A stretch of 64,000 bases of DNA, from IMG/VR virus record IMGVR_UViG_3300028841_000078. One strand, written 5' to 3'. The notes beneath the pieces were generated by a model. That model ran no database searches, was not told the DNA's origin, and saw only the letters and a list, made by a program, of their open reading frames with translations. Each line of letters begins with the position of its first letter. Within the stretch, counting starts at the first letter, position 1. The stretch is from a virus. The position numbers were made by a program, and so were the translations under genes. Shown here in pieces: positions 613 through 63,224 of this stretch.

Positions 613-2193
613 TTAGCAGTCATCCGTGAGGCATTTCACTTTTGTAACTTTGGCACTGAGCTTTTGCTGGTAAACATCGGCCAGTAAGTGATTACTTTCG
701 GCGCTGGCGGATAGCTGATAGACGCTTGGCAGGGCCACCAATTGACTGACCCGCACTACTGCCACCAGCTTGAACACGGTGAGTGCCACGCACCCGACCA
801 CATCCCCGCCGGGTTGAATGGCGAACTCTATGGCATCGCGGGCAAAGCCCCACCCCCACGCCGGGGACACCGGCAAGACCACATCGATCATCAAAGCGGC
901 ATCGCGGGCAAACCCGCTGCCAAAGGCTTTATCGGCTTGTAGGATTGCATCAGCCCGCAGAAGGGCATCGCGGGCCGTGCCCCACCCATAGGCTTTGTCG
1001 GTAAGCAATGTCACATCGATGTGACAAATCGCATCGCGGGCAAAGCCGCTGCCATAGGCTTTATCGGCCTGTAGCGTCACCCCGGCGCTCATGGCGGCAT
1101 CTTTGGCAACGCCTGCCCCATAACCCTTATCGACGCTCAAATTCACGCCAATCGTGAGATTTACGTCCTTGGCAATGCCCCACCCATACGCATGATCGGC
1201 CTGCACATTGACGCTAACCCCGGTTGAGATAATGGCATCTTTAGCAAACCCGTTGCCGTAAGCGTAATCAACGGGCAAATTGACCCCTATCGAAAGGGAG
1301 GCATCCTTGGTAAACCCGCTGCCGTGGGCGTGATCGACAGATAGGTTGACCCCGGTCGATAGCGAGGCATCCCTGCCAAGGCCACTGCCAAAGCCCTTGT
1401 CCGCCAGTAAATTAACCCCTGCGCTCACCGTTGCGTCTTTGGTAAATCCCGCCCCAAACCCCTTATCGGGTAGCACGGTCACCCCAATATTCACCGTGGC
1501 ATTGCGGGCAAAGCCTGACCCAAAGGACTTATCCACAGATAGATTTATCCCTGTGGATAACGTTGCGTCCTTGGCAAAGCCCGCGCCGTGGGCCTTGTCC
1601 ACCAACAGGGTCACCCCGGCGGAGATCTGGGCATCTTTGGCGACCCCTGACCCAAAGCCCTTATCGGCGGTAACCGTTATCGACACGCCGACACTGACCG
1701 TGGCATCTTTGGCAAAGCCCGACCCATGCGCCTTGTCTGCCAACAGATTAACCCCGGTTGATAGGCTGGCATCCTTAGCGAAGCCGCTGCCTTGCGCCTT
1801 GTCTGAAAGCAGGGTCACCCCGGCGCTGACCGTGGCATCCTTAGCGAAGCCTGCGCCGTGGGCCTTGTCTGCCGAAACGGTGATGCCAATATTGACAGGG
1901 GCATCTTTGGCGAACCCCGCGCCGTGGGCTTTGTCCACGGACAAATTGATCGAGTTGGCAATGGCCGCATCTTTGGCAAACCCGCCGCCAAAGGCTTTAT
2001 CAGCCACCACCCCCACCCCGGCGCTGACCGTGGCATCTTTAGTGAAGCCTGCCCCATGCGCCTTATCAACCGTCAAGTTCAAGGAGCATGAAATAACAGC
2101 GTCTTTTGCAAAGCCGCTGCCAATGCACTTATCAACCGTGACGTTGACATCCGTGCTTCCTGATTGCGGAATCGGCTGCCATACCCAAGCCAT
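613..2193 (-). CDS. 22-aa tandem repeat virion protein (putative beta-solenoid fibre)
   Basis: About 20 repeats of DKAxGxGFAKDAxxSxGVxLx counted in the translation. Confidence 0.75.
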   Translation of the reverse strand: MAWVWQPIPQSGSTDVNVTVDKCIGSGFAKDAVISCSLNLTVDKAHGAGFTKDATVSAGVGVVADKAFGGGFAKDAAIANSINLSVDKAHGAGFAKDAPVNIGITVSADKAHGAGFAKDATVSAGVTLLSDKAQGSGFAKDASLSTGVNLLADKAHGSGFAKDATVSVGVSITVTADKGFGSGVAKDAQISAGVTLLVDKAHGAGFAKDATLSTGINLSVDKSFGSGFARNATVNIGVTVLPDKGFGAGFTKDATVSAGVNLLADKGFGSGLGRDASLSTGVNLSVDHAHGSGFTKDASLSIGVNLPVDYAYGNGFAKDAIISTGVSVNVQADHAYGWGIAKDVNLTIGVNLSVDKGYGAGVAKDAAMSAGVTLQADKAYGSGFARDAICHIDVTLLTDKAYGWGTARDALLRADAILQADKAFGSGFARDAALMIDVVLPVSPAWGWGFARDAIEFAIQPGGDVVGCVALTVFKLVAVVRVSQLVALPSVYQLSASAESNHLLADVYQQKLSAKVTKVKCLTDDC

Positions 2194-2540
2194 TACACCG
2201 CCCGGATATCACCGACAATCGTTCTGTCGGTGCCTGCTAATTTCTTTACCGTCACGTCCCAACCATGCAGCACCATGAGGGCGGGTAACACAAACATCTT
2301 GCTTTGCGCCCCGGTCAAGATGGCCTCATACACCACGCGCTGTGTGCCGCCGGAGATGGCCTTTTCGTAGACCCTGATCTGATACTGGTCGCCCGCCGCC
2401 ATGTTGAACATGTCGAGCCAAACCTGAATCGTGTAATCGGTGGTCTGCGGAGAACCGGATGAATAAGTTGTGCCGGTCGGGATACTGATTTCGGTTGTGC
2501 TGACCGAGGCATTGATCGTAAAGAGTTCAGATGGGGCCAT
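2193..2540 (-). CDS. small virion structural protein
   Basis: Beta-rich ORF coupled to neighbours in the structural block. Confidence 0.6.
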   Translation of the reverse strand: MAPSELFTINASVSTTEISIPTGTTYSSGSPQTTDYTIQVWLDMFNMAAGDQYQIRVYEKAISGGTQRVVYEAILTGAQSKMFVLPALMVLHGWDVTVKKLAGTDRTIVGDIRAV

Positions 2541-6934: not shown

Positions 6935-7759
6935 TTATGCAGCCTCCAGCGCGGCCACCCGGCCCGCCAAATGTTTTACGGCCCCAAGCAACAGCGACAC
7001 AACGCCATCCATGCTTAAGGTGTGAATCGTCCCGGCCTCTGTGTTGATCGCTCGCGTGACCCGCTCCTCGATGTCTTTAATGTCATTGGCCGAAAAGCCA
7101 AGTTCGACATCCTCCGGCGGGTTTCCATTGCGGACAAAAGAGATCGGGTTAATCAACATCACCTTGTCAAACGACTCCGAATCAACAAGGTCTGTGATGT
7201 TGTATTTTGTGGACACGTCCGAGACGGTGGTTTGGGCTTTGTAGAACGTGATCGCGCCCCCGTCGAGGGTCATGATCAGGTTCTCGGAGGCCGTGCCAAG
7301 GTTATGAGTCACAAAGCGATGCAAGGCAGAGGCGTGTGTGGTTGGGCTGCACCATAGCGTGTATGTGACCGCATTGTTTTGGCCTGCCCCGCGAGTAATT
7401 GAGAAGCCGCCAAACTCAGCATTGGCCGCATCGCCCCCATAAGCGGCAAGGTCGCCATTGGCCCGCAAGTGCAGCGCACTGTTGACCGTGGCCCCGGCTG
7501 CTTTTTTGTTGGGTCCAATCCGGAGCGTGGCGTAGTCGCCGGGGGTGACCGTCTCTTTGAGCAGACTGCCGTTCTTGAGGCTATCGGCGGTTTCCATTTG
7601 AAACCCGCGCATCTGGGCAATGGCGTTGACATCCGTGAACACCGCAGAGTCCCCCATTGTGTTGATGGCAGAGCTTGGGGTGGCCCACGCCGCGCCGTTC
7701 AACCGCAGGAGTTCTAGGATTTGACACCGGTCAAGGCCGGGTGGAATTTGACTGATCAT
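6935..7759 (-). CDS. tail fibre with C-terminal intramolecular chaperone (Peptidase S74-like)
   Basis: 'SDVSTKYNITDL...INPISF...LGFSANDI...' plus terminal coiled coil LAGRVAALEAA. Confidence 0.75.
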   Translation of the reverse strand: MISQIPPGLDRCQILELLRLNGAAWATPSSAINTMGDSAVFTDVNAIAQMRGFQMETADSLKNGSLLKETVTPGDYATLRIGPNKKAAGATVNSALHLRANGDLAAYGGDAANAEFGGFSITRGAGQNNAVTYTLWCSPTTHASALHRFVTHNLGTASENLIMTLDGGAITFYKAQTTVSDVSTKYNITDLVDSESFDKVMLINPISFVRNGNPPEDVELGFSANDIKDIEERVTRAINTEAGTIHTLSMDGVVSLLLGAVKHLAGRVAALEAA

Positions 7760-7803
7760 GGTTTTTGTTGCTTACCCTGTCACATCGATGTGACACTGAA
7801 TTC

Positions 7804-8220
7804 TTATGCCGCACGAATGGGCACCGGAGACAACGCTGACGCGATGACCGTGGAGTGATTGGTGGCTGAGATCGAAAACGAGGCGGTAAACGGCCCATTG
7901 GTGTAACCGATGGGATTTGAGGCCACCTTTAGCAGATTGTTGTTCAGCCACGGCCCCTTGATGCGATACACCCCGGAGTTGTCCGTTTGCCCTGACAGAG
8001 CCACCCCGGAGGCATCGGTGATGATGACCGTGGCCCCGCGCACCGGGCGGCTTAAGGTGTCCACAATCGTTCCCTGAATCGTCACCTCCCAGTCGGCGAT
8101 TGCGTCCTGCTGATTGACACAGGTTGACGGATATTGGTGATAGGGCAACAGCAATAGGCCATGCTCAACAATCCAGTCCAGCATGGCATCCGGCGATGAC
8201 CCGGCAGGAAAGACCTTCAT
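7804..8220 (-). CDS. virion protein with carboxypeptidase-regulatory-like (Cna-B/Ig) domain
   Basis: 'TIQGTIVDTLSRPVRGATVIITD...QTDNSGVYRI'. Confidence 0.6.
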   Translation of the reverse strand: MKVFPAGSSPDAMLDWIVEHGLLLLPYHQYPSTCVNQQDAIADWEVTIQGTIVDTLSRPVRGATVIITDASGVALSGQTDNSGVYRIKGPWLNNNLLKVASNPIGYTNGPFTASFSISATNHSTVIASALSPVPIRAA

Positions 8221-10043: not shown

Positions 10044-10481
10044 ATGGGCAGCATTGATTTCATTGTGCTTGTGGTTGGGCTACTTGCTGCCATGTTCTTT
10101 ATCGACCGGTCCGTTAAAGCCAGAACGGAGGATTACCGGGTATTCATCAAGTATCTTGAAAGCAAACTTGATGAATGCAACGAGTTCTCAAAGTTCTGCC
10201 TACTGCTTGGGGAGGATGCAGGCGCAAACGGGGATGCTCATATCGAACTTGGGCAAGCCACCATCGCATACGGATACCGAGCAAAAATCTCCGAGTATTT
10301 CAACATGGACGAGATGAGGGTGATTTCATACGATCTTTACGGAGAGAAGTCGTCTGATATTCATGGGGAGACAAAAGATGTATATTCGATGCACCTGTTA
10401 TCCTACGCGGTCAGAACTGGAACGACTGGAATGCTCATCAGTCGCTGCAAAACCGATAGACCGCAGGTGAGGTGGGAATGA
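10044..10481 (+). CDS. hypothetical protein with N-terminal membrane anchor
   Basis: MGSIDFIVLVVGLLAAMFF; start chosen from the class-B promoter geometry. Confidence 0.55.
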   Translation: MGSIDFIVLVVGLLAAMFFIDRSVKARTEDYRVFIKYLESKLDECNEFSKFCLLLGEDAGANGDAHIELGQATIAYGYRAKISEYFNMDEMRVISYDLYGEKSSDIHGETKDVYSMHLLSYAVRTGTTGMLISRCKTDRPQVRWE

Positions 10482-11212
10482 ATCACGTTCCAATTAGCCA
10501 GAGAACGCTGACATCCTACATTGGATTTGTAAGTTCGTTTTTGGTGCTGGTGTTCGCATCAACGCACTTAAATATTCCAGCGTCCAAGCCCCCCGCCACA
10601 GGCATCCATATTCGCATCATTCGCCCCGAAGGGGTGACTGTGCGTGAATCCAAAATCATTCCGGTGACGGTCATGCCCAAGCCCCATATCGACCCACTGC
10701 CACAGGCTTACCCGACCGATGTCTATGAGTCGATCATGAGCGTCTACCCAAGCCCGGAACCGACGCTGGCAGAGCCTCCGATGGAGCCACTGGCAATCAA
10801 CTATGACAATGCGGTGGCGGTGGTGATCAAAAATACCCCGGTCGTCATCGAGCCATTGATCAAGGCCACGGTGCCCGGTGTGGCGCGGCTGACACTTGCT
10901 GCGCCCGCCACGCCTATTCCCAGTGTCACATCGATGTTACGCTATGTGCCGCCCGAATGGGTGTATCGGTCTGCCGCCGCTGCCGGGATGAACCCGGTGA
11001 CCCCTGCCAAGATCGAGCCAACCCTTGAGGGAGGCGATACCCCTAGCCCCACCCCGCAACCCACCCCCACCCCAACCGAATCTCCGCGCCCCTCTCCGGT
11101 GCCGCAGCCCACGCCCACCTTAACCCCGGTGCCGCTTCCAGAACCCACCCCCACCATCGACGCGCTGATTAGCCCGCTTGAGGTGCCCACCCCAATTCCC
11201 GATCTGCCGTGA
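10478..11212 (+). CDS. membrane-anchored Pro/Thr-rich protein
   Basis: N-terminal hydrophobic helix; PTPQPTPTPTESPRPSP tail; RBS GAGGTG. Confidence 0.6.
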   Translation: MNHVPISQRTLTSYIGFVSSFLVLVFASTHLNIPASKPPATGIHIRIIRPEGVTVRESKIIPVTVMPKPHIDPLPQAYPTDVYESIMSVYPSPEPTLAEPPMEPLAINYDNAVAVVIKNTPVVIEPLIKATVPGVARLTLAAPATPIPSVTSMLRYVPPEWVYRSAAAAGMNPVTPAKIEPTLEGGDTPSPTPQPTPTPTESPRPSPVPQPTPTLTPVPLPEPTPTIDALISPLEVPTPIPDLP

Positions 11213-13821: not shown

Positions 13822-14636
13822 CGTTCAACCTTTGGGTTCAGGCGCTTATACAGTCTGTCGTAGTCGGGCTGATTTTCCGCACCGCGCTTCTCATATCCGT
13901 AGCCAATCATCAGCCGCTTGATGATCTGCCCCTTGTTCAAGCCCTCACCGATGTACTGCGTAATCAGCGTGTTCTCATCATCAATCAGCAGAGTATCGGG
14001 CATGGTCGCGGGTTCCGGCAGCTTTGGCAATGAGACTTCGCTATGAATCCTCAAAGTGTCCCCAGATGAAACCACCTGTTGCAGCATGGGCCTGTTTCGG
14101 GCCTCATCCAGCTTGGCCGAAAGTTCCGCGATTTCGGTGTCTTTGGCCGCGATCTTTGCGTCTTGATCGACCTGCCATGTATTCCAGTCGGTGATCTGAT
14201 CGGTCAGGCGCTTAATCTCGCGGGAGACATCCCCGGCATCCCCGGCAAAGCGAATCACGGTCACGACCGCCATCGCAAAGGAGGGAATCGCGGCGACAAT
14301 GATCTTGGCCGGGGCATACGCCCACAATAGCTTCCCCGCCATTTCAGTATCGGTGTTCTCGACAAAAATATCCGCAACCTGAATTGCGCCACTGACAGTG
14401 ATCAAAAAGAGGCTGGTCAGCATCAGGGCGGTCCTAAAGAAGCCCACCCGCGCCTCCCCGTAACTGTTCAGCGCCAAAATCATGAGTTCCAAACAGGCCG
14501 CTCCGCTGATGGCATACAGCGCCCCGCGAAAGTTGGCCCCGCCAATCTCAAAGAAAAAGACAAGGGTGCCGACCATCTGAATCGCGGCAGCGGCCCAGTA
14601 GCCGATCTTGAACCAGTCCGTCTTTTGGGCGTTCAT
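13755..14636 (-). CDS. four-TM membrane protein with coiled coil (DUF2637/Spd-like)
   Basis: Four hydrophobic helices, coiled coil, C-terminal helical domain. Confidence 0.6.
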   Translation of the reverse strand: MNAQKTDWFKIGYWAAAAIQMVGTLVFFFEIGGANFRGALYAISGAACLELMILALNSYGEARVGFFRTALMLTSLFLITVSGAIQVADIFVENTDTEMAGKLLWAYAPAKIIVAAIPSFAMAVVTVIRFAGDAGDVSREIKRLTDQITDWNTWQVDQDAKIAAKDTEIAELSAKLDEARNRPMLQQVVSSGDTLRIHSEVSLPKLPEPATMPDTLLIDDENTLITQYIGEGLNKGQIIKRLMIGYGYEKRGAENQPDYDRLYKRLNPKVERWLNKQHLPSTNPSIESGHAAR

Positions 14637-14911
14637 ATTTCGTCCACCCCCGGCACATCCTTAAGCCCCTGCACAATAGCCCGGTCTTTCGGGGAATTGC
14701 CAGAAACTAAGTCTGATGCTATATACATTTCAGCCTTGACCAAGGCCTGCGAAACTTTCTCGCTGCTATTGCCAAATTTTGCCACGCCCATATTGAGGAC
14801 AGGAATCAGCATCTCCACCACCTCACCCTCGGTGATTCTGAGTTGCCCTGCAGCGGCGGCGACTGCCCGCTTTGTTTCGTCCGAAACGGTAATCACAATT
14901 CGATTTGCCAT
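14633..14911 (-). CDS. ribbon-helix-helix DNA-binding protein
   Basis: MANRIVITVSDETKRAVAAAA: alternating beta strand followed by a helix; ATG 8 nt below the -10 box. Confidence 0.6.
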   Translation of the reverse strand: MANRIVITVSDETKRAVAAAAGQLRITEGEVVEMLIPVLNMGVAKFGNSSEKVSQALVKAEMYIASDLVSGNSPKDRAIVQGLKDVPGVDEI

Positions 14912-15520: not shown

Positions 15521-16364
15521 CCTGTATATCGTCACCCGCTATACCCCAGATGGATTTTTGGCCGGGACCATTCCCTCTCAGTGGATGTATGAACTGCAGC
15601 GCATCATTGCCGAACAAGCTCAACTGCTGGAGATGATTCGCTGGCGCGGCGGCATTTTGCATCTGGGTAAGTATGTTGAACTGTATTGGACCCCGATTCA
15701 CCCAGAGCTAAAAAACGCGCTGATTGGCCGCATTGCCATGATTACGCAGGTTCCGGTGTCGGTCGATGTCATGATGGGCATCGAGGTGATTCGAACCCAG
15801 ACCCGCGCCTTTTATGGGCAGAAGCATTCCAAGCTGAAAGAGGTCATCGAGCTTTCAAAGGCCAAGAACTTGAAACTTGCGGTCGATGAGTTCAAGGAAC
15901 TGTATAACTACAGCCCGCCCTATTCAGAAAAGCCTGACCCTAAATCCATCATCGACTTTGACGCTGATGCCGATGCCATCAAGAAAGCTCTCTTGGAGAT
16001 CCAAAAGCCCCATGAGAAAGAAACCAAGATCAAAAGCGCCGGTCATGGCGGCAGCAACCTATCGGCACTTGGCGGCACAATTCATTGCGGTGAGCTATCA
16101 AAGCCCCTCAAAAGCAACATGTTTCCGGCCAGCATCTGGGAGACTTCTTCTATCAGTCCGTGGAATATCCCGATCAAAACAGTGAAAGAAAACACAATCC
16201 CCGGACTAACCAGCGAAGCGTATCTCAATAGTTATTTAGGTGAGAAATATGAACACACACATCCAGACGACCAATCCAACTCAGCCCACCCCGGCAAGGG
16301 GCAGCATTCAGGAAGCGGCAAGAATGATGATGAACCGGGCGCGGGAGATGAACCGACCCTTTAA
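15513..16364 (+). CDS. hypothetical protein carrying motifs shared with tail protein 4190-5602
   Basis: Contains AGHGGSNLSALGGTIHCGEL and SISPWNIPI. Confidence 0.55.
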   Translation: MNNLYIVTRYTPDGFLAGTIPSQWMYELQRIIAEQAQLLEMIRWRGGILHLGKYVELYWTPIHPELKNALIGRIAMITQVPVSVDVMMGIEVIRTQTRAFYGQKHSKLKEVIELSKAKNLKLAVDEFKELYNYSPPYSEKPDPKSIIDFDADADAIKKALLEIQKPHEKETKIKSAGHGGSNLSALGGTIHCGELSKPLKSNMFPASIWETSSISPWNIPIKTVKENTIPGLTSEAYLNSYLGEKYEHTHPDDQSNSAHPGKGQHSGSGKNDDEPGAGDEPTL

Positions 16365-17745
16365 CATCGTCAACATCAACGTGATCGGGGAGCGGTCCAA
16401 TCCCTCCGGTTACGAGTGGCGGGTGGTGCCGACCGGTGCCACCAGCATTGATTCCATCGAGAAGATTGTCGATGACCTAGCGATGGTGGCCGGGTGCCCG
16501 ATTCGACTGATGCGGCGTGAGGGCGGGGTTTACCTGCGCTATGTGCGCCCCGGCGCGGTGTCCGCCAACTATGATGTTCTGCTTGAGGCGGTCAAGGAAC
16601 GGGCGGCAGGCCATATCCCGATGATGGGGTTGGGCTTTCTGCCCAATGGTCGCCCACTCATGGCCCGCCTTGATCGGCCCAACGCCTGCCATGTGGGGGC
16701 GTTCAGCCAGACCCAATCGGGCAAGACCAACATGTGTCAGGTGGCGCTGGCGACCTTGGCGGCGGGGTGCCATCACCGGCATGTCCAGATCGTCATCATC
16801 GACCACAAGGCCAATAAGTCGTTTGCAGCGCTGCTTGGCAAGCACGTTCACGCCCACGCCATCAACAAGCCGCAGTGGTTGAACGCCTTGCGCGACGTGC
16901 GCCGACTGATGGACTACCGCCGGGAGCATCTGGAGGAGATCGATAGTTGGTCACATGTGGTGGTGTATTGCGATGAGTTGGGCGAGGTGGCGCATGAGTC
17001 AGGTTCAGAAATCACCGATCAGTTCGACAGCATCGCCCGCCGTGGGGCTGGCCTCAAGGTCCACATGTTTGTCGCCACGCAGCGGCCAAGTTCCGATGAG
17101 GTCAAGACGATTGTCAACAGTCAGATTGCCTTTCGGATTGTCGGGCGCTGCAGCAGTGCGCGGGAGGCGGTCACCGCTGCCGGGGTAGGGGGCACCGGTG
17201 CCCACCTGATCAATCGCATCGGCCACTTCATCGCGGTCAAGGCCGATCAAGGCGGCGGGCATCTGGACTTCTTTGTGCCGCACATGGATGTCCCCGCGCT
17301 GCCGGAGGCGGACTTGTCAAAACTTGCCAACTTACCCGCCGGGCCAAGCCCGGTGTCATCAACAAAACGTCACATCGATGTGACAAAGGCCCGTCACATC
17401 GCCACGCAGGAACCTGCAGATACTGGCGAGAATACTCCGAGCAACTCGCAGCGAGTGGAGCATAGTGAGGGTGTCACGGGGTTTACTGAGATTGATGACC
17501 ATGACGATTCCCGTTTTATCAATGAGTCGGACGTGCTAGTGGCAGATCTGGTGGCCCGCATCATGTTCATCAAGACCGGCGCATCGGACGGAGCCAAGAT
17601 CAGTCAGAACGAAATCCTACGCCGTTGCAAGCTGACCGACAAGGAGGGCAACCCAATCACCCGACTGGGCGGCGGTAGTTTGCACCCGCGCTGGAAGATG
17701 GCGATGCAGATCGTGGAGGCCACCATTGACACATTGAGCAAGTAA
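16249..17745 (+). CDS. FtsK/SpoIIIE (TraB-like) ATPase
   Basis: Walker A-like SQTQSGKT, IIDHK, Walker B VVYCDELG, RRGAGLKVHMFVATQRPS. Confidence 0.85.
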   Translation: MNTHIQTTNPTQPTPARGSIQEAARMMMNRAREMNRPFNIVNINVIGERSNPSGYEWRVVPTGATSIDSIEKIVDDLAMVAGCPIRLMRREGGVYLRYVRPGAVSANYDVLLEAVKERAAGHIPMMGLGFLPNGRPLMARLDRPNACHVGAFSQTQSGKTNMCQVALATLAAGCHHRHVQIVIIDHKANKSFAALLGKHVHAHAINKPQWLNALRDVRRLMDYRREHLEEIDSWSHVVVYCDELGEVAHESGSEITDQFDSIARRGAGLKVHMFVATQRPSSDEVKTIVNSQIAFRIVGRCSSAREAVTAAGVGGTGAHLINRIGHFIAVKADQGGGHLDFFVPHMDVPALPEADLSKLANLPAGPSPVSSTKRHIDVTKARHIATQEPADTGENTPSNSQRVEHSEGVTGFTEIDDHDDSRFINESDVLVADLVARIMFIKTGASDGAKISQNEILRRCKLTDKEGNPITRLGGGSLHPRWKMAMQIVEATIDTLSK

Positions 17746-18316: not shown

Positions 18317-18839
18317 CAGTTGAACTCCTACCAAGTATCTTCGCAACAATGTTCACGTTTTCAAGGTCGATTCGCCGAAACCCCCCAAATGGGCAGGAGG
18401 AGACTGCCCGATTATCCCAGTGGTTGTATTTATCCCAGACTAAACCGCACGACCGTCACATCGATGTGACAGGTATTGGCTGAGATTGGCCCCAAATTGG
18501 CCCCTTTTCGGCCACGCTTTTGTCACGCCTGAAGCAGCGCCAAACATGCCCCTAGATTCGCTCAGAATGGCCCGTAGCGGGGCAGTAGCACTGAGATAGG
18601 CATCCGTGGCCCGTAGCGCCGTGCTTCGCACGAAATCGGGGCTTTTTCGCGCTTCTGTGCTACCGGTAGCAAAATGAGATATGAATTTTTTCAAAGTTGG
18701 TCCGGCGATGATTTGGCGATGACAGACCGATGATTATGTAGGGTGGGGCAGTAGCGGTTTTGAAATTTTTTTAAGATGGCTAAGAGGGACGGTGCGTATT
18801 TTTGGGCGCAGCGCTAACGTGGGCCGGTTGCGCTGCCCT

Positions 18840-19480
18840 AGCCTATCGCTGATCGATGCCTAGGCGATGCCGTGCCGTGCCCCACTCTATTTTGTGGGCA
18901 TCGCCTGAATCCGTGCCCGCATCGCCTAGTCTATCGCTGCCGCATCGCCTGAACGTTGTCACATCGATGTGACATGACCATGATCAGGGCAGCGATAGGC
19001 GACACCATGACCTGACCATGAGGGCACCATGCCACGCATAGACAGCCACTAGGGGCGATGCCTAGGCGATGCTAGGCAATACCTAGGCCATACCAGCGGC
19101 ATCGCCTGATGTGACACGGAATAGACACATAGGCCACACATAGGCAGCGCATAGGCTGATTAGGAGGGCGATGGCTGAGAAGGGCATGATGCCCACCATG
19201 CCGCTATCCGCTATCCGCATCCCCTACACCATGCCCTACGCCTACACGCTGGCACCATGATCAGGCGATGCCTAGGCGATGCGGCATGGTGTCACATCGA
19301 TGTGACACCGGACAAACGGGCACCGTGTCAGCCTAGGCGTATATCGATAGGGCATGGGGTCAGCGGGGAATAATCGCCGGATTGACACCTAGCAGGGTAA
19401 ATCTGAGACCTAGGGCACCAAATAGGCCATTCACGTTCTATAGATAGTGCGTTTACGCCTAGTGTCGCCTAGGCTGAACC
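18840..19480. repeat. non-coding low-complexity region rich in CATCGCCT/AGGCGATG and CCTAGG
   Basis: Seven CCTAGG sites (18859-19473), three copies of CGATGCCTAGGCGATG, two 16-bp palindromes, no credible ORF. Confidence 0.7.
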
Positions 19481-19559
19481 GAACAATCCTCAGTCTAGGC
19501 GTGATAAATTGACAAGTTTTGACAAGTTCACTAGGCGCAATCTGATGTATAAACCTCAT

Positions 19560-19900
19560 GACACTAGGCACGTTCTAGCCATAGTGAGATTAGGCGGATT
19601 AGGTAGTTCTTTCTTTAGCCATCGTGTAGGGCGCGAATCCTAAACGAATTGCCCAACTAGACTGCGGTCATGGTGATGGGTGAAACGTAGAGGCAGGGTA
19701 AGTGAAACGTCCGACGATTGAGTGCAATTCTCAATCATGCCGTAGGTAAATAGCCAGACCATAGGACGCATAATTGTTTGATGTAGGTCAAGGAGCCCTA
19801 AGTAGATTATGCGGAATCAGCCTGATAGCGGGCACTGAGCCAACTGGTAACTAGTCGATGCCGTAAGGATAAGACGATGGCAGAGAATGATTTACCTGAT
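19560..19900 (+). ncRNA. candidate structured RNA upstream of the early genes
   Basis: Nested helices found by eye (19618-25/19874-81, 19666-74/19753-60, 19716-22/19730-36, 19768-75/19805-12). Confidence 0.35.
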
Positions 19901-20006
19901 CAGGCGAATAATTTAATTATGCTCAATAGTAAGTTATAGGGCACCATGCCTACATGGTGCCTTATGTCTATCGATTGAACATATACACACATAGGAAGGT
20001 AAATAA

Positions 20007-22096: not shown

Positions 22097-22134
22097 GTGT
22101 CACATCGATGTGACGGTTTAAGGAGACAAACATC

Positions 22135-24500: not shown

Positions 24501-24594
24501 GCTAGGCGCAAATTGGCGTTTGCTACTGGGTGTCACATCGATGTGACACTCGGTGTCGAAATTCCAATTTCAAAACACACATAAGGAGTAAGTC

Positions 24595-25122
24595 ATGAAA
24601 GGTAAAACCAAAATCAAAACAGAAAGTGAGGCGCAAACTCAAGCACAACGCTGCGTGATCGTCGTTCAGGTCAAAGATGTCTGGATGGTTGAACTTCGTT
24701 TCGCCACCCACGCCGAGGCAGAGGCGCACATCGCCAAGAAGATCATCAAAACCGGCTATGTCATTCCGGAGATGATCATGCCGCCGTTTAGCGACATGAT
24801 TAGCTGGAAGCCGATTATTTCACTTGACCCTGTGGGTGGCATGGTTCGGGTTTATTCGGGCAGAATCTCATCGGTCAATCTTCTTGATCGTATTCTTGAG
24901 AATCTCACCAAGCAGTCACGCATCGCCAAGATGCGCGGAAGCAACAGGGGGATTGATACAGACAAAGATCACTTGGCAATTGTCTGGCGCTTCTTGGCGT
25001 TTGAGAACGAGGTCTGCCGAGAATTGATCAAGGGCAATGACACTCGAATCATTGATCATATCAACTACATTGCGGAGTCAATGGGCAAGCATATCGACCT
25101 CCTCAAGAAGAACATCGTCTAA
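24595..25122 (+). CDS. hypothetical protein
   Basis: Start motif ACACACATAAGGAG. Confidence 0.65.
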   Translation: MKGKTKIKTESEAQTQAQRCVIVVQVKDVWMVELRFATHAEAEAHIAKKIIKTGYVIPEMIMPPFSDMISWKPIISLDPVGGMVRVYSGRISSVNLLDRILENLTKQSRIAKMRGSNRGIDTDKDHLAIVWRFLAFENEVCRELIKGNDTRIIDHINYIAESMGKHIDLLKKNIV

Positions 25123-41094: not shown

Positions 41095-41142
41095 CCTGTC
41101 ACATCGATGTGACAGGCGTTCAGAAACGCAAAACACAAAATC

Positions 41143-41604
41143 ATGAACGAACAAACCCCTACCCCTATCTTAAGACAAGCCAGCGAAACCTATATCGGAG
41201 CCTCACCGCCCCGGTGGGATATCTTCTCTGACCGCAAGGCGACCGTGGTCGGTGGTCCCTGCGTGGCCCCCGGCGCACTGGAGCGGTTTATCCTGACCGA
41301 TCTCTCTGACGCGGAGATCGAGAAAGCCAAGGTCAATGCCCTCCTGCACATGGACTTGATGCTTGGCCGGATTGACGTGGGTCGAATCCAATTGCACAGC
41401 AACAAATACATCATGATCGACGGGCACGAGATCACATTCAAGCCCCTGCACGTCATGGTGGTCCTCAACACGATTGACTCTAAAGACCCTGATCGCAAAG
41501 CATTCTGTTTTGCGTTGGCAAAGAAGTTTGAACTGATCGCCAGCTTCTCAGGCGATGCCGGTCTTTGGAAAGAAGCCTGTAACGCGGTGGACAAATACAA
41601 ATGA
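41143..41604 (+). CDS. hypothetical protein
   Basis: ORF directly after a palindrome copy. Confidence 0.55.
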   Translation: MNEQTPTPILRQASETYIGASPPRWDIFSDRKATVVGGPCVAPGALERFILTDLSDAEIEKAKVNALLHMDLMLGRIDVGRIQLHSNKYIMIDGHEITFKPLHVMVVLNTIDSKDPDRKAFCFALAKKFELIASFSGDAGLWKEACNAVDKYK

Positions 41605-43296: not shown

Positions 43297-45024
43297 ATGA
43301 AAACGATAGTCAAAGCCGATGCCAGCACATACAAGATTGAACTTCATGATTTATCGGTGCTGTTTTTGTATTCGTCCAAACATCCCCTAATTCTGCCCAT
43401 CTTTCTATACATGCTTGCCATGACCGACAAGGCCCGCCGTGGGCAATTGGCGCGAGTGTTGGGTGGGCACCCCATGAATAGCGAGGTGATTGCCCAACTA
43501 TTCGGGGTGGGGCAGTCCACCGTCCGCACCGCCATCAAGGTCATGATCGAGTGCGACCTTGTGCGGTTCAACGAAATAACCCTGCCCGCAAAAAAGGATG
43601 GCCCGCCCATCAAGCGCCGAACGTATACGGTCATGATTCACAAGCTGACCAAGCGGGCGGTTGATCTGTCCAAAGATATCGCCCGTTCAAACAAGGGCGC
43701 GGTCAAGGCCCGCCGAATGGGGCTGGACCCGGAGGCCCTGCTGCGGCTGATTGGGGATACCTTTCAGTGGGTGCCGCAAGTCGGACAACACCCCGCCAAC
43801 GATGCCGCCGCGTCAGGAGCCGTGTCGGACAACGACGATTCTGCCTGCGTCCGTACACTGACGCAGGCAAATCAGCACCGCCTGCGTCCGTACACGGACG
43901 CTATATATACCAGTAGCTCTCAAGTTCTAAAGTCTAAAGAAAAACTGGTACATTCTGTATATTCCGGTGTGACACCGAAAAACATAGAGGTTTCTGGCGT
44001 GACACCGACCCCCGAAATTTTGGCGGGGAATCTTGAACCCCGTCACATCGATGTGACAAATGCTCCCGCTGACGGATTATCCGCCGAAATTCCCGGCGGC
44101 GACAAAAACCGCGTGACACCCTCTGAGACTGCAGTAAATGCAGAACACTCGGAGTATTCTCCGAAGTCTGCTATCTCAGACCCCCAAAAGGCCCAAAATA
44201 GCCCCGTAATCGCACTTACCCATCCTGCCATAGCCAAGTTAGCGAATCACGCCTCAAATGACCCAATAGACGCAAATTTGGGGCATGTTTCAGAGGCTCC
44301 GGCAACGGCGGATAAACCCAATCGGCCCGGTGCGCGGCTGATCGAGGCCCATCGGCAAAATGGCAGGGTTGACCCACTGGAATTTGCATTCGAGGCATCG
44401 GCGGCGGCCAACGATAGCGAACTGGGTGAGGCCACCTTGACCCTACGCAATTGGGGGATGCCTGAAATTTGGGAGCGGCTGTTGATTGAGTTCTGTCGCA
44501 TCACCAAGGTTTATCCGTCGCGCAGCAACAAGGGCAAGGCCAGCCGCTCGGCGTGGACCGCCGCGATGGAGCGCATGACCCAAGACAAGCAAACCGATAG
44601 CTTTGTCGAGGCGTGTCAGATTGCGGTGGAGAAGGCCCGCCGTGGCACATGGACGATCACCGGCCCCTTCTCGATCAAGGTCGATGCGGCGGATATCCGG
44701 TCGCGTAAATCTCGCGGCGAATGGCCGGGGATTGAGGAGTTCATTAGAAAGCACTATCGCGGCGGCGAGTTGGACCGACTTGATCGGTCTGAGGAAAGCG
44801 CCACACAAGAGGAGGTGGTGACCCAAACGACCGATGTGGTCTGGACGATCACAAAGGCCCAACAAGAACAACTGATGAAAGCGCGAATCGTGAAAGACCG
44901 CGCCGTGCTCTGGAAGAAGTTCATCCCAGATGCGGTCATCGTGATTCGCGGAGATCAAAATTCGCCGGTCAATGAATACAACTTTGTTGGCCCTGAAACC
45001 GGAACAGTAAAGGTGATTCCATGA
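43297..45024 (+). CDS. putative replication initiator (N-terminal wHTH, long linker)
   Basis: MNSEVIAQLFGVGQSTVRTAIKVMIECDLV; upstream of helicase and primase. Confidence 0.6.
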   Translation: MKTIVKADASTYKIELHDLSVLFLYSSKHPLILPIFLYMLAMTDKARRGQLARVLGGHPMNSEVIAQLFGVGQSTVRTAIKVMIECDLVRFNEITLPAKKDGPPIKRRTYTVMIHKLTKRAVDLSKDIARSNKGAVKARRMGLDPEALLRLIGDTFQWVPQVGQHPANDAAASGAVSDNDDSACVRTLTQANQHRLRPYTDAIYTSSSQVLKSKEKLVHSVYSGVTPKNIEVSGVTPTPEILAGNLEPRHIDVTNAPADGLSAEIPGGDKNRVTPSETAVNAEHSEYSPKSAISDPQKAQNSPVIALTHPAIAKLANHASNDPIDANLGHVSEAPATADKPNRPGARLIEAHRQNGRVDPLEFAFEASAAANDSELGEATLTLRNWGMPEIWERLLIEFCRITKVYPSRSNKGKASRSAWTAAMERMTQDKQTDSFVEACQIAVEKARRGTWTITGPFSIKVDAADIRSRKSRGEWPGIEEFIRKHYRGGELDRLDRSEESATQEEVVTQTTDVVWTITKAQQEQLMKARIVKDRAVLWKKFIPDAVIVIRGDQNSPVNEYNFVGPETGTVKVIP

Positions 45025-47107: not shown

Positions 47108-47174
47108 TTCAACTCACGCGGGTCGTAACGGATTCGCGTGAGTTATCACATCGATGTGACATCCTAGGTGACCT

Positions 47175-48152
47175 ATGACAACTCCCCGTTTCGACAAAGA
47201 CGCTCTCAAACGACAAATCCCAATTGAAGAAGTCATTGCGGCAGATCACCCACTCAAACAAAAAAGTCCTAGATTGCTAGTCGGTGCCGCCGACGACTGC
47301 GATAGCTTAATGGTCGAGGTCGATAAACAGATGTTCAGTTGGTGGCGACCCGGCTGGCACGGCGATGTCTTTGTCTACCTGATGGAGACGCGCAACATCG
47401 ACTTTCGGGAAGCCTTACGCATCTTGGCTGAGTTTCGGTCAGCCTGCCCAGACATCCCGCCGCCCAAAGCCTTTAAGCAATACGACGAAAAGCCCAAGCC
47501 CGCCATTGACCCGACCCTGCCAGACCGGTTGCACAACAACCTGTTAGACAACACCGTGGCCCTTGATTACCTGATCAATCGCGGCATCGGCTTTGATGAC
47601 ATCACCCGCTACAAACTAGGCTTCCAGTCGAATTACTTAGGCCAAGGCGACATCATCGCCATCCCGGTCTACGATGGCGAGAAACTCATGAACATGCGCT
47701 TTCGGCGCATGGTGGACAGCAAACAGTCCAAGCTACCGCGCTATGGCTACATGCTCACCGGTCACGGTGCCCAACTGTATAACGCCGCGCTGCTCGATCA
47801 AAAGCGCGATACGGTCTACATCGTGGAGGGTGAGTTCAAGGCCATCACCGCCAACGCCTTTGACCTGCCCGCAGTCGGCATCATGGGCGCGTCCTCAATG
47901 AAAACTGAATGGTTTGGCCGGTTCAAGTCTGCCCGCCGGGTGATCGTCGCACTCGACAATGATCAACGTCCGTTTGAGTTACCGTGGGTGAAGGGCCTTG
48001 CCGCCGCACATGGCAACGTGCGGGTCATTCAACTCTACGACAAGATCGATGACCTTTTACTGAGTGGAGGCGCATCGTTCGTATTGAGCGCCAGCGAATC
48101 TGCTCAAAAGGTTATTCCTGATGAAAGTCAAAAACAACCAAGATACGGTTAA
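47175..48152 (+). CDS. DnaG-type/TOPRIM primase
   Basis: GDVF..LM....DFREAL; YIVEGEFKAI; IVALDND. Confidence 0.85.
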   Translation: MTTPRFDKDALKRQIPIEEVIAADHPLKQKSPRLLVGAADDCDSLMVEVDKQMFSWWRPGWHGDVFVYLMETRNIDFREALRILAEFRSACPDIPPPKAFKQYDEKPKPAIDPTLPDRLHNNLLDNTVALDYLINRGIGFDDITRYKLGFQSNYLGQGDIIAIPVYDGEKLMNMRFRRMVDSKQSKLPRYGYMLTGHGAQLYNAALLDQKRDTVYIVEGEFKAITANAFDLPAVGIMGASSMKTEWFGRFKSARRVIVALDNDQRPFELPWVKGLAAAHGNVRVIQLYDKIDDLLLSGGASFVLSASESAQKVIPDESQKQPRYG

Positions 48153-48654
48153 TAAGATCGGCAAACGTGCCGCTGTCGAACTAGCCCTGTCCAAAGCGCC
48201 AAAGGCAAAACATCCCTTTGGCGCTTTTGGCGAGGCGGTCATTCTTGCCAACGGCAAACCCTATTTCCCCTCACCGGCTGAGGTGATGCGGGCAGAGCGG
48301 GTGGTCTTGCCTTACATCGTCAGCTTCTATGTCTCACATGGCCGGGTGCCCAGCGCGGTCGAATGCAGCCAAGACTTGAATATCTCAAGCATTGACCGAG
48401 TTCGCAAGCTCTTTCACATCCTAATCGGGCGCGGGCACCTGAGCAAGTCATCAACCGGCGGCTTCATGCAACTCGTCGGCCACGCTGACCAAAAGGGCGC
48501 GGCGGAGTTGCTCAAGCAAATCACCCCGGAATACTTGAAAGGGCTGGACGCGCTGGACAGCAAAACCCGCGACGACATGCTGGCGCTGATTAAATTTGTG
48601 GCACTCACAAAATGGGTGTTGCCTGCAGGAGAGGTGAAATGGGGAAAGAGTTAA
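48121..48654 (+). CDS. LexA-like wHTH DNA-binding protein without peptidase domain
   Basis: GRVPSAVECSQDLNISSIDRVRKLFHILIGRGHL. Confidence 0.65.
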   Translation: MKVKNNQDTVNKIGKRAAVELALSKAPKAKHPFGAFGEAVILANGKPYFPSPAEVMRAERVVLPYIVSFYVSHGRVPSAVECSQDLNISSIDRVRKLFHILIGRGHLSKSSTGGFMQLVGHADQKGAAELLKQITPEYLKGLDALDSKTRDDMLALIKFVALTKWVLPAGEVKWGKS

Positions 48655-49567: not shown

Positions 49568-50110
49568 TCACCCGTCCCACTCTTTGCTAAAGACCGCAAC
49601 CTTGCCGCCGGGGATATCGATGTGGGTGGCTGCGATATTCTTGATCTCGATCTTGGTTACGGCGGCGGCGGCTTTGATTAGGATGTTGGCAAGTCGCTCC
49701 TGCGCCCGGAGTGCCTCTTTGTAATCTGGGTCGTCGATTCCTAAGCCATCTTCACGCAGCTTGTTGATGCGTTCAACCACAGCGGCGTGAGCCTCAAGCG
49801 CGGTCTTAACCGCCTGAGACACGCCGATGTAGCTGGTCGTTTGGGCTTGTGCGGCGGCAATCTCCTTGACCGCTAAGACATAGGCCGTGCGACGGTTCCA
49901 CCAGTCATTCATCGCGGCGGTGGTCAACAGGTCTTTCTCATCCGGGTAAACACGGGCGAGATACTCAGTGATGCTTTCGGTCAGCATGGAGTTTCGGCTG
50001 AACTCAAGGAACCGCGAATAATCAACCTCAGTCTCTTGAGGCCAGCGCTCCCATGCTTGGGCGGGGGCGGCAACGGGGGTATCGACGGTGGCAAGGTTTA
50101 GTGATGGCAT
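49568..50110 (-). CDS. terminase small subunit-like protein
   Basis: WERWPQETEVDYSRFLEF...WWNRRTAY pattern typical of TerS-like proteins; -10 TATGCT at leaderless distance. Confidence 0.55.
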   Translation of the reverse strand: MPSLNLATVDTPVAAPAQAWERWPQETEVDYSRFLEFSRNSMLTESITEYLARVYPDEKDLLTTAAMNDWWNRRTAYVLAVKEIAAAQAQTTSYIGVSQAVKTALEAHAAVVERINKLREDGLGIDDPDYKEALRAQERLANILIKAAAAVTKIEIKNIAATHIDIPGGKVAVFSKEWDG

Positions 50111-50279
50111 CAAACAAGCATATCAAAACCTGCAGACATGTCACATCAATGTGACAGGCAACCGGAATTGCCAATAAACGCTCAGACAACGCCTGTGTGA
50201 TATCGATAAATATCTTGTGTCTGAGCGTGGAAAATGGTAAAACTGAGTTAAATCATCATTCATCCACAATGCGGACACT

Positions 50280-51880: not shown

Positions 51881-52154
51881 GGTCCAAAACGATTCCAAGA
51901 TTGTCGATGTCATGTGGCTGCGGCCCGGTCAAGGGACAAACTTTGGCATCGTGCTGGTTGAGACGCTATCGGGCAATAAGGCCTATGTTGGTTCGTGCTT
52001 TGGCTACGATGAGCAGGTTGATGCACTGCATATCTATCACACCGGAGCCAAGATTTTGGCAGAGCAAGCCGTGACGATGGCCGCGCACATGATGGCGCAC
52101 AGGGAAGGAGAGGACGACAAATCCCATGAAAGAGACAATCAAAAGACTTTATGA
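51861..52154 (+). CDS. hypothetical protein, similar to the N-terminus of 51299-51880
   Basis: Both contain W-x-x-x-x-x-x-x-x-G(I/V)VxV followed by an AxxI..xG.(K/R)I motif. Confidence 0.55.
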   Translation: MLNLPLEVQNDSKIVDVMWLRPGQGTNFGIVLVETLSGNKAYVGSCFGYDEQVDALHIYHTGAKILAEQAVTMAAHMMAHREGEDDKSHERDNQKTL

Positions 52155-52368
52155 ACGACTTGGCTGGCGCACAATGTTCTTTGGCAAAGAGGAAAGCGTC
52201 GAGGTCAATCAGCAATGCGACTACGACACCGGCAAGCCTGAGTTTCTTTGCTCCATAGAGATCAGAGCACATCACATCGATGTGACGACCGCCGAGGCTC
52301 TGGTTAATGACATCAAGGCGGCGATTACACAGGCGCGGACGTGGAATCGCGGAGTAATTGAACTGTGA
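52126..52368 (+). CDS. hypothetical protein
   Basis: GGAGG RBS; contains a palindrome copy (HIDVT). Confidence 0.55.
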   Translation: MKETIKRLYERLGWRTMFFGKEESVEVNQQCDYDTGKPEFLCSIEIRAHHIDVTTAEALVNDIKAAITQARTWNRGVIEL

Positions 52369-52571
52369 AACAAATAGAACTAAGAACATACGGCGATATG
52401 TTTGTCGCACATGTATACATTTCTCCATTTCAGGAAATGCCCGAAGCCGTTGTGTGGGGCCAGAGAATCTTTATCCACCGTAAAGATTTAATTTACGACG
52501 AGGGCATGTGCGCTGTGGCTTATGACTCAGAAGTGCCGCCGCATGTAGGCATAGGGTCACAGGGTAATTGA
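52365..52571 (+). CDS. hypothetical protein
   Basis: GTGA coupling. Confidence 0.5.
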   Translation: MKQIELRTYGDMFVAHVYISPFQEMPEAVVWGQRIFIHRKDLIYDEGMCAVAYDSEVPPHVGIGSQGN

Positions 52572-52574
52572 ACC

Positions 52575-52928
52575 ATGAATGAACCTCTAACCGTGGAATG
52601 GGTTGACTTTAACGACCCACGACTAAGCGACGACAAAACAATTGGCTGGATGGGAGGATGGGTGCGCGGCGAACAATGGGATGAATATCTCAAACTTATT
52701 GCCGAGCAGTGGCACCCTTACATGAACGCGGTCAAAGACTCTATCATCGCCAACAACATCAAATGCACCGGGTCAGAACATTCCGAGGGCGAAGGCTTTA
52801 CCCCGCTGTTCAGCGATGGTTATCAGCTTGGCCTGACGTGGCGGGCATGGGGCGACCTGATGGCGGCGGTATGGAACACCGCTGAGGACACCAATCGATA
52901 CAGTTACACAAATTTTTACATGAGTTAG
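52575..52928 (+). CDS. conserved phage hypothetical protein
   Basis: PLFSDG...TWRAWGDLMAAVWN. Confidence 0.65.
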   Translation: MNEPLTVEWVDFNDPRLSDDKTIGWMGGWVRGEQWDEYLKLIAEQWHPYMNAVKDSIIANNIKCTGSEHSEGEGFTPLFSDGYQLGLTWRAWGDLMAAVWNTAEDTNRYSYTNFYMS

Positions 52929-53679: not shown

Positions 53680-53768
53680 TGTGGCGCGATGCTACAAATA
53701 ATTCCCCGGTGCTGCCGCGTCTAACAATCATGGAAGGCGTGTCACATCGATGTGACAAGGAGATTCAA

Positions 53769-55339: not shown

Positions 55340-55490
55340 TCCGCTTGGGCAGCGTCATCTTGCCCAAAATCTGCACACCCCGACCCCAATTAAAAAGGGT
55401 GACCCGGTGATTCGCCGCGCCACCCTTTTAGTGTTCATCTTGGCAACCATTGTTGCCGTGGTTTTTATTGTCACATCGATGTGACACCGA

Positions 55491-56972
55491 TCAGACCGGC
55501 CCCGCCACGGTCACCGCCCCAACTGCCGGGTAAGCCGCCGCCGTGACACACAAGGTGGCCTGTGACTTTGTGGCGGTCAGCAGCACGGCAGTCCCCCCGA
55601 CCGGTGCCGTAATCGTGAGGGTTGGGACTGCCGTGTAGTGCGCCCCGGAATAATCAACCGTCACCTGTCGGCCCGTCACCCCGCAGACCGGGTTCGTGAC
55701 CGTGGCAACAAAGCTAACAACCTGCGTGATGCTGCCCACGCCCGTCACCGGCACCTTATCACCCTTCGTATTGACGTTTTGGTTGCTGCTGGATAGCAGA
55801 TCATCCGGGTCATACAACTGGCTTGATAGCGTAACCGCCGTGGTCATCGAGTCGGATTGATAGCGATGCTCGTATTCGGTGACATACATGCTCTCGCTGA
55901 TCACATAGCCGCCATTGCCATCTGGGATTGTGACCAAGGCTTTTTTGCCCACGATCATGTCTAAAATAATCCACGGACACACCAGATCGACCCGCCGCAC
56001 GGCTTGAGATTTCATCTCCAGATACTTGACCGCGATATCGGTGAGCAACTGCTGCGCGGGGTAAATATGTTCAAGCAGCTTCTCGCCCAGTGGGGTCACG
56101 CCGCCGATATTGATGGCGCGGGTGCAGCCCACTGCGCCGATTTTGCGAAGGCGAAAGTAGTCTTTGAGATTGCGCTTGATCAGTTCAATGACATACCCGG
56201 CGGGCACTGTTGAATACTCCGGAGCCTTTCCGGTGGTGTTATCCCCCATCAGCAGCACGTAATTGTCGTTTGACCCCTCTTTGGTGTATCCCCCACCCTC
56301 CACATACAGCGCCGAGGTCAGTTCCGAAATATCATCGGTGAACTGAGAATGAATCCAGCTTAAGCGAATGTCGCTGTGATCATTCCCCGGCCCCCCAAAA
56401 ATCAGCCCCGACTCCTCTCCGAATTGCCCCACCTCAATTGTGCAGTCATCCTTCACCCTAAAGCTATTCCCACTCACCCCGCACAGATTCCGAATCACCT
56501 CCAGCATGTTGCGCCCGTTTGCATTCAGTCGCCCCCCAAAGTTAAAGTTGTTGGGGTTGACAAAGACCAGCGGAATCGTGCGCCCGGTTTCGTCCAAGAT
56601 GTATTGGCCGATCTTGTTAAAAGTATCGACCACGGTCAGGTCATCAAAGACGGTTGCCCCGCTGGTGGCCGCGCAGCGCAGCACCGAACCACACGAAGGC
56701 TCAAGGCTGAGGGTCACCCCGCCATCGGTTTCTGAGGCATCGTTGACGACCAGATGCACCCGGTAATCCTCAAACTTGACCCCGCTGATATAGACCCGAA
56801 TCGTGTCGTTGTTCTGCACCGTATAAAGATCGGTGATGGGCAGAATCAGTTCAGGCTCGCGCACCTCGTTGAGTGCCCCACTCCGGGTAAAGGACTTGAA
56901 TTTGAGAATTCGGCGAATGAAGTTCACGCCGCGCCACTGCTCGATGACGGGCAACTCTTTACTGACGATCAT
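55491..56972 (-). CDS. siphovirus baseplate hub/Tal-like minor tail protein
   Basis: Position after Dit; 'IVGKKALVTIP...MYVTEYEHRY' OB-like region. Confidence 0.65.
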   Translation of the reverse strand: MIVSKELPVIEQWRGVNFIRRILKFKSFTRSGALNEVREPELILPITDLYTVQNNDTIRVYISGVKFEDYRVHLVVNDASETDGGVTLSLEPSCGSVLRCAATSGATVFDDLTVVDTFNKIGQYILDETGRTIPLVFVNPNNFNFGGRLNANGRNMLEVIRNLCGVSGNSFRVKDDCTIEVGQFGEESGLIFGGPGNDHSDIRLSWIHSQFTDDISELTSALYVEGGGYTKEGSNDNYVLLMGDNTTGKAPEYSTVPAGYVIELIKRNLKDYFRLRKIGAVGCTRAINIGGVTPLGEKLLEHIYPAQQLLTDIAVKYLEMKSQAVRRVDLVCPWIILDMIVGKKALVTIPDGNGGYVISESMYVTEYEHRYQSDSMTTAVTLSSQLYDPDDLLSSSNQNVNTKGDKVPVTGVGSITQVVSFVATVTNPVCGVTGRQVTVDYSGAHYTAVPTLTITAPVGGTAVLLTATKSQATLCVTAAAYPAVGAVTVAGPV

Positions 56973-57265
56973 GATTCACCAATGACTTTAGCAACCTTGC
57001 TAATCAGTTTGAGCTTGACCCGCTTGCGCGGGGGCAGCGCCTGAATCGTTTTCCATTGCCCGGTCGCGGGCAGGTAATGCCGACGCTCGGCGCGGGCGGA
57101 CCACATGATGATTTTGCCGGTAAGTAGATCAGGCATCTTGACCCTGCCGGAGGTTTTGATATCACTCAAGACCGACTCGACAATGGCATCGTAGACCTTG
57201 GCAACGTCAGCGGCGGAGATCTCGGTGGCCTCAGCAATGCGCTTGATAAACTGTTTCTTTCTCAT
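56969..57265 (-). CDS. hup: HU/IHF-like DNA-binding protein
   Basis: MRKKQFIKRIAEATEISAADVAKVYDAIVESV...GRVKMP...RARR..PATGQ..I...RKRVKL. Confidence 0.8.
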   Translation of the reverse strand: MRKKQFIKRIAEATEISAADVAKVYDAIVESVLSDIKTSGRVKMPDLLTGKIIMWSARAERRHYLPATGQWKTIQALPPRKRVKLKLISKVAKVIGES

Positions 57266-63161: not shown

Positions 63162-63224
63162 AGTTCACCCTTATTTTTGTTATTCTGATGACATGTCACA
63201 TCGATGTGACAACAATCAGAATTG

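Follow-up and report, generated by a model that had tools for sequence, protein, structure and literature searches.

The stretch of viral DNA analyzed here at its full length of 64,000 nucleotides (IMG/VR record IMGVR_UViG_3300028841_000078, hereafter the window) belongs to a tailed phage and is marked by a short perfect palindrome, GTCACATCGATGTGAC (hereafter M), whose copies are dispersed across 62 kb of it. The window encodes a portal, a tape measure of 1616 amino acids (aa), a terminase-like gene, a DnaB-like helicase, a primase-like gene and RuvC, together with a PF01555 methyltransferase, a Ro60/TROVE protein, an FtsK-like ATPase and an HU-like protein; the parent contig is 67.7 kb long, and about 3.7 kb of the genome lies outside the window. 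The gene of the HU-like protein, which has a divergent HU/IHF fold (Pfam Bac_DNA_binding, E 2e-12), lies amid the tail genes at 56972-57265 on the minus strand. Neither DNA, portal and terminase queries nor an alignment of the winged-helix protein discussed below found relatives among GenBank phages or in IMG/VR. Sequencing runs from bioreactors, wastewater and activated sludge contain the window sequence; in runs X2 and X4 the strain, which diverges by roughly 5%, is devoid of 557 bases (52370-52926), which hold the gene 52575-52928.

Copies of M and their gene context

A motif scan of the window identifies 16 exact copies of M and 5 copies with one or two mismatches, the same counts and identical coordinates as in a first-pass annotation made from the sequence alone. 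In dinucleotide shuffles the mean is 0.00 for exact copies and 0.05 for copies at up to two mismatches. Most copies have a T at position -1 and an A at +1, so that the unit is an 18-bp palindrome, TGTCACA-TCGA-TGTGACA. Its arms (positions 2-6 and 11-15 of M) are almost invariant, and changes fall mostly at the centre (8-10) and at the ends (1 and 16); read on the sense strand, the core variants create an A.C mismatch four times and a G.U pair never. A check of flank pairing confirmed the extended copies described earlier, by 3 bp per side at 19291 and 41098 and by 6 bp per side at 26806; in about 70% of the copies pairing past the ±1 positions is missing. Short palindromes are otherwise strongly avoided in the window: 22 of the 64 six-base palindromes are wholly absent (for example CCGCGG, CCCGGG, GGCGCC, CCATGG and AAGCTT), CCGCGG is observed 0 times against about 25-30 expected, and GTAC 21 times against 246 expected. 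Twenty-one copies of a 16-bp palindrome therefore stand out even more. The relatives described below, and the unrelated contig G001, follow the same trend, and the strength of the avoidance in the window suggests a host with many restriction systems.

On our own map of open reading frames (ORFs), 14 copies are clearly intergenic, and the copy at 53741, upstream of AAGGAG-N6-ATG, is best counted with them, which gives the fifteen intergenic copies claimed before. Against a non-coding fraction of 13.8% this is a strong enrichment (binomial P 4e-8 to 3e-9). Many copies directly adjoin the ribosome-binding site of the next gene, and three begin immediately after a stop codon, as had been observed: the exact copies at 22099-22114 (2 nt past the stop and just 5' of the AAGGAG ribosome-binding site of gene 22135), 41098-41113 (3 nt past the stop, extended by cct/agg) and 29025-29040 (4 nt past the stop and 20 nt upstream of a TTGACA at 29061, a spacing that is 19 nt in the relative L237). 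The exact copy at 53741-53756 directly abuts its AAGGAG-N6-ATG (start 53769), and the variant ATCACATCGATGTGAC at 47145-47160 lies 14 nt upstream of the primase-like gene 47175. Other exact copies are located between the minus-strand genes 7804-8220 and 6935-7759 (7779-7794, with exact orthologues at L247 12155 and L249 8056), where the plus-strand and minus-strand gene blocks converge (55470-55485) and 33 nt upstream of the tape-measure gene start on the minus strand (63195-63210). The variant GTCACATCAATGTGAC at 50140-50155 occupies the divergent region between gene 49568-50113 on the minus strand and gene 50280 on the plus strand. Three exact copies (18455-18470, 18958-18973 and 19291-19306, the last extended by ggt/acc) fall in a non-coding region of about 1.7 kb, 18350-20006, which is dense in short repeats (CTAGGCGATGC / GGCATCGCCTGA, ACCATG and TAGGC) and may be an origin or control region. 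The remaining intergenic copies, at 24532-24547, 25142-25157 and 26806-26821, are part of larger structures and are treated in the next section.

Inside genes, M is read as HIDVT at 1010, 17369, 37082, 44042 and 52271, in agreement with the first-pass annotation. The exact copy at 1010-1025 lies in the tail-fibre-like gene 613-2193 (minus strand), where CHIDVT indeed takes the place of the x-S-x-G-V-x consensus of a 22-aa repeat; orthologous copies are found in L247 (one mismatch) and L249 (exact). At 10925-10940, within 10472-11212 on the plus strand, the variant GTCACATCGATGTTAC stands in the TGA frame and its single mismatch changes TGA to TTA, so the earlier observation of a removed in-frame stop is correct; the L249 orthologue has two mismatches. 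The exact copy at 17369-17384 falls within the FtsK/SpoIIIE-like gene 16240-17745 (plus strand), in its hypervariable linker, and the relatives carry it with one mismatch each and in another frame. Two further exact copies, at 37082-37097 within 36025-38133 and at 44042-44057 within 43297-45024 (both plus strand), are respectively missing from the L244 and L246 orthologues and kept in L244. A second ATCACATCGATGTGAC variant, at 52271-52286, lies within a weak ORF (52126-52368).

Conservation in relatives, covarying hairpins and sister-clade palindromes

Syntenic relatives were collected from other samples through protein searches and contig look-ups (L237/L238, L240+L244+L249, L246 and L247/L248), and their proteins are 45-90% identical to those of the window. 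Across 28 orthologous pairs of sites, compared without gaps, identity is 97.3% in the core of M and about 41% in the 30-bp flanks. Between 17.3 and 29.1 kb of the window, all nine sites have a counterpart in both L237 and L240. In the linker of the FtsK-like protein the palindrome is translated as HIDVT in the window and as SHQCD and SHRYD in relatives. This frame switching, together with the contrast between core and flanks, indicates selection on the nucleic acid and not on the protein; on this comparison, M is a real and functional element. Since its arms are invariant and its centre is variable, the pattern fits a dimer reading two half-sites and not recognition of a loop on an RNA hairpin, and because the core variants give A.C and never G.U, the core is not kept for RNA pairing.

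Three copies have an additional layer of conservation. The first-pass annotation had pointed to a compensatory change at 25142, where the variant ATCACATCGATGTGAT has ATCAC...GTGAT within cagggc/gccctg, forming a 30-bp palindrome; this change is real and belongs to a larger pattern, in which three copies of M cap covarying hairpins. At 24532, 25142 and 26806, and equally at the orthologous sites of L237 and L240, M forms the tip of a conserved three-helix hairpin of about 60 nt (24510-24570, 25120-25180 and 26784-26844 on the plus strand). In the alignment of the nine sequences (three loci in three lineages), 97.1% of the cells are paired and 12 of the 23 pairs show compensatory double changes, values reached by none of 500 shuffles, and controls slid along the sequence pair only 30-45%. 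On the sense strand there are 16 G.U cells against 1 A.C, which implies that the hairpin structure is read on that strand, most simply as RNA. The three hairpins are located between cistrons and are followed by a conserved CACACA-AGGAG leader. A similar conserved leader, ACACACATAGGAAGG, stands directly before several early start codons (17883, 19985, 20323 and 21203), often just past a strong terminator.

More distant lineages have palindromes of their own (TGTAACTTCAGAGTTACA, TAACACYRGTGTTA and TAACAAYRTTGTTA) in place of M, which was not found in the sequences of L253, L255 and L250/L251. L253, whose winged-helix protein is 46% identical to that of the window, carries TGTAACT-TCAG-AGTTACA in 2 copies in 10.8 kb (6891 and 9589); L255, with a winged-helix protein 34% identical, carries TAACAC-YR-GTGTTA in 5 copies in 20.5 kb (2533, 6292, 11903, 15779 and 18562); and L250/L251, whose portal is 48% identical, carries TAACAA-YR-TTGTTA in at least 7 copies in 21.7 kb (7 sites in L250). 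Moreover, the same conserved minus-strand gene (44-78% identity) has one copy of the respective palindrome just upstream of it in the window, L244, L253 and L255. A protein and a site that co-evolve within the phages would be expected to give such a pattern, with a shared position and a different palindrome in each clade. With their 2-nt centre, the 14-mers of the sister clades would form a weak hairpin at best, which argues for recognition as duplex DNA.

A proposed phage regulator and the competing explanations

We infer that the copies of M serve as operators on double-stranded DNA for a dimeric regulator encoded by the phage, a reading to which we would give about an even chance. The 18-bp palindrome would be a high-affinity duplex-DNA site to which the protein binds as a symmetric dimer, and the placement of the sites in short intergenic gaps, upstream of ribosome-binding sites, in the divergent control region and in the 1.7-kb non-coding region would allow transcription to be controlled genome-wide. 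The bound regulator might repress, act as a roadblock or time the switch from early to late genes, in a mode that can be likened to the stoperators of mycobacteriophages and the C1 operators of phage P1. The dimeric-protein binding sites proposed in the first-pass annotation thus persist as the best reading, now with comparative backing; the partition, HIP1-like and terminator functions that it had placed beside them are not supported, for the reasons given below.

The likeliest binder is a 177-aa protein (48121-48654, plus strand) with a LexA-type winged helix at residues about 50-118 and no peptidase domain. It is conserved in the window, L244, L253 and L255; the L244 orthologue is 74% identical, with residues 27-128 nearly invariant, and an exhaustive HMMER search placed its homologues in three clusters only. 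The AlphaFold model has helices at 52-73, 79-85 and 91-103 followed by a two-strand wing (predicted local distance difference test, pLDDT, 74-88), and its best PDB matches are LexA structures, namely 3K2Z, 3JSO (a LexA-DNA complex) and 1LEA (root-mean-square deviation 2.3 over 65 residues). In the clade with M the putative recognition helix does not vary; it is nearly the same in L253, whose site also has the 7+4+7 layout, and most changed in L255, whose site layout differs. The alternative candidate is the conserved all-helical 181-aa product of 49568-50113 (minus strand), the only minus-strand gene in the early block and the one with a palindrome just upstream in four lineages, which might also be a regulated gene; it has no match in Pfam, PHROGs or Atlas and its AlphaFold model is poor (pLDDT 47). 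A ribbon-helix-helix protein (14633-14911, minus strand), also considered, is an unlikely binder, its own promoter having a different inverted repeat, TTGACATTTG, and its conservation being 28-54%.

Several observations weigh against such operators. Pfam searches of the window found no integrase, classical repressor or ParAB, and so give no indication of a lysogenic repressor of the stoperator type. The strong sense-strand covariation of the three hairpins capped by M is more than a pure DNA operator needs. The 177-aa protein is a candidate binder only. The LexA fold matches of its model are weak, with E-values of 0.025-0.09, and the correlation between helix and site spans only three lineages. 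In addition, four exact copies of M occur in an unrelated integrase-bearing IMG/VR contig, G001, which shares its metagenome of origin with L237; this contig, only about 50% complete, has no detectable homologue of either candidate binder. G001 shares with the window only a distant FtsK-like ATPase, and the FtsK-like protein was rejected as a binder common to both since the C-termini are unrelated. Two of the G001 copies lie in a 0.9-kb non-coding stretch between divergent gene blocks, an arrangement like that of the window at 18350-20006.

The main rival is a role at the RNA level, which is possible with the chances clearly against it. M would act in polycistronic transcripts as a short RNA hairpin with a 7-bp stem and a UCGA loop, bound by an RNA-binding protein or a ribonuclease, for mRNA processing or stabilization or for translation control downstream, and the 60-nt hairpins would be its full-size version, comparable with the RNase III sites of T7. 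The similar folding of three loci in three lineages with covariation and the strand-specific G.U bias speak for it, as do the many copies that abut a ribosome-binding site and RNA-related genes such as Ro60/TROVE. However, the stem sequence is fixed and the loop variable, contrary to how hairpins are usually recognized; the loop has a palindromic symmetry for which RNA has no need; the 14-mers of the sister clades are hardly foldable; and the window has no Rfam match at a family's gathering score. A tRNA was not found in it either. We treat the hairpins as a second layer around three copies and not as the general mode of M, because about 70% of the copies are unpaired past ±1 and the core variants are A.C, never G.U. 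A shared code with both layers, in which M is a DNA operator and the tip of an RNA hairpin, is also read by G001, and is matched by an orthogonal palindrome-protein pair in each clade, we regard as unlikely; if true, a phage regulator or a common host factor would cross-control another phage, through exclusion, satellite-like hijacking or shared immunity. As an intrinsic terminator M was rejected, and the terminator function suggested earlier is unlikely, since no T-run follows it and classical T-run terminators occur elsewhere (21124, 21609, 29511 and 17882 on the minus strand). The central ATCGAT, suggested as a methyltransferase target and also considered as a restriction target, is common outside M in the window too (42 copies), and no specificity could be given to the PF01555 methyltransferase. 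That M is a functionless selfish or mutational by-product, such as a spreading mini-palindrome, has a negligible probability: the copies are identical and some sit within genes in tolerant frames, but orthologous positions with flanks diverged to about 41% identity exclude a recent spread, palindromes are very strongly avoided elsewhere in the genome, and no transposase or RAYT-like gene was found.

M could also be the site of a host protein exploited by several phages of the same host, which we hold to be quite unlikely. The four exact copies in G001 favor this, and M can be written as GTCACA-TCGAT-GTGACA, two GTnAC boxes 11 bp apart, with GTCACAtcg resembling the mycobacterial MtrA box GTCACAgcg (PMC2945938); two GTKAYS boxes 5 nt apart have been described (PMC10714768). 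On the other hand, the different palindromes of the sister clades argue for a co-evolving partner encoded by the phage rather than for a host factor, a perfect 18-bp symmetry exceeds what tandem-binding regulators need, and the G+C content of the phage, 54%, is low for typical actinomycetes. Moreover, a scan of about 185,000 species, each represented by a single genome (596 Gb in all), yielded 106 matches to M, scattered over many phyla, against about 139 expected, with at most 2 per assembly, and five candidate genomes gave only background counts at up to two mismatches. A host-wide repeat, whether HIP1-like or the neutral one against which the first-pass annotation had set its own proposal, was rejected on these chance-level single matches and background counts; no enriched genome emerged from the species covered. 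The sole genomic copy in a Microthrixaceae metagenome-assembled genome (L076, 3200-3260) caps a perfect hairpin whose arms measure about 22 bp, and is probably a chance terminator-like palindrome. A metagenome scan for the 16-mer found mostly single chance copies, and two unrelated repeat families with the M core, one of about 35% GC with a conserved element of >150 bp and one of vent type with M upstream of a -10-like box, share no proteins with the window and are analogies only. Very unlikely, finally, is a part in DNA transactions, be it hairpin priming or replication on single-stranded DNA, recombination and module exchange, or a loading or partition site for the FtsK-like or HU-like protein. 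Three copies do cluster in the origin-like, repeat-rich non-coding region, with a similar situation in G001; another viral contig, L004 (IMGVR_UViG_3300043446_001263), has an iteron-like array of GTCACA/TGTGAC half-sites inside a winged-helix replication initiator gene; gene insertions or replacements adjoin the copies at 25142 and 29025; one X2 contig links the flanks of 41098 and 18455 across M, its end reading as 41114-41143 in reverse complement, then M, then 18471 onwards; and the FtsK-like gene is the sole gene common to the window and G001. Yet the main X2 and X4 strains keep the order of the window across 18455 and 41098, with no reciprocal junction among those listed, a palindrome gives no polarity of the kind required for loading of the FtsK/KOPS type, and the two FtsK-like proteins have unrelated gamma-like C-termini. 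For partition through parS-like sites, also raised before, the ParB and ParA families were not found in the window, and the sites are dispersed over 62 kb and not clustered.

Two observations on these loci stand by themselves. In L004, six alternating half-sites about 11 bp apart (2770-2835) lie within a 354-aa ORF with a winged-helix N-terminus, followed by a DnaC-like AAA+ gene, and the array looks like an origin inside an initiator gene, as in lambda O. In the window, the genes at 27980-29020 and 25153-25413 are absent from all relatives fetched and directly adjoin copies of M, and the relatives carry other small genes at these places.

Related repeats in other phages

M is a fresh case of a known class, the dispersed short repeats of phages, which includes stoperators, the palindromes of Cluster O and the C1 operators of P1. 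Like the Cluster A stoperators (L5 gp71 type), it is scattered over more than 20 sites (21), mainly in short gaps between genes (15 intergenic), and the site consensus differs between related lineages. Stoperators co-evolve with their repressor. They are, however, asymmetric 13-14-mers oriented with transcription in temperate phages with a known repressor, whereas M is a perfect palindrome. In P1, with its C1 operators, and in phiC31, with its conserved inverted repeats, one regulator serves many operators dispersed around the genome; both phages are temperate, their repressors are identified, and the sequences are unrelated to M. Like M, the operator known as the LexA SOS box is a palindrome of 16 bp; winged-helix domains bind it as a dimer, and the modeled domain of the candidate binder matches LexA best, but the phage protein has the winged helix only, without the S24 peptidase domain, and to our knowledge M matches no LexA consensus. 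The RNase III sites among the early genes of T7 are likewise inverted repeats or hairpins between cistrons; there the shape is conserved and not a 16-nt sequence.

The closest known case is found in the Cluster O mycobacteriophages, which have 34 copies of 17-bp palindromes, TGTTCGGNNNCCGAACA, with invariant arms, a variable centre, about one third of the copies inside genes and no known function (PMC4351075). Both systems combine tens of copies, dyad symmetry and a siphovirus genome of about 70 kb in a phage that is not obviously temperate, and both share the invariant arms, the variable centre and the mostly intergenic distribution with about a third inside genes. They differ in layout, 7+3+7 in Cluster O and 7+4+7 in M, which is not TGTTCGGNNNCCGAACA, and the phage described here resembles no GenBank phage in either its proteins or its DNA. 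M is further distinguished by its conservation across lineages with 45-90% protein identity, by sister clades with their own palindromes and by three covarying hairpins. The start-associated sequences (SAS) and extended SAS (ESAS) of Cluster K (PMC3203893) resemble M as conserved elements immediately 5' of translation starts, but they lack symmetry and include the actual ribosome-binding site, and M also occurs inside genes and in non-coding DNA.

The palindromic kind of genome-wide phage repeat is still without an assigned function. To this class the present case adds unusually clean comparative data from uncultured wastewater phages, two candidate binders and a twist of RNA structure. If confirmed, the protein-site pairs would constitute natural orthogonal parts, each made of an operator and its regulator, and the data set makes the role of such palindromes testable in vitro without a cultured host.

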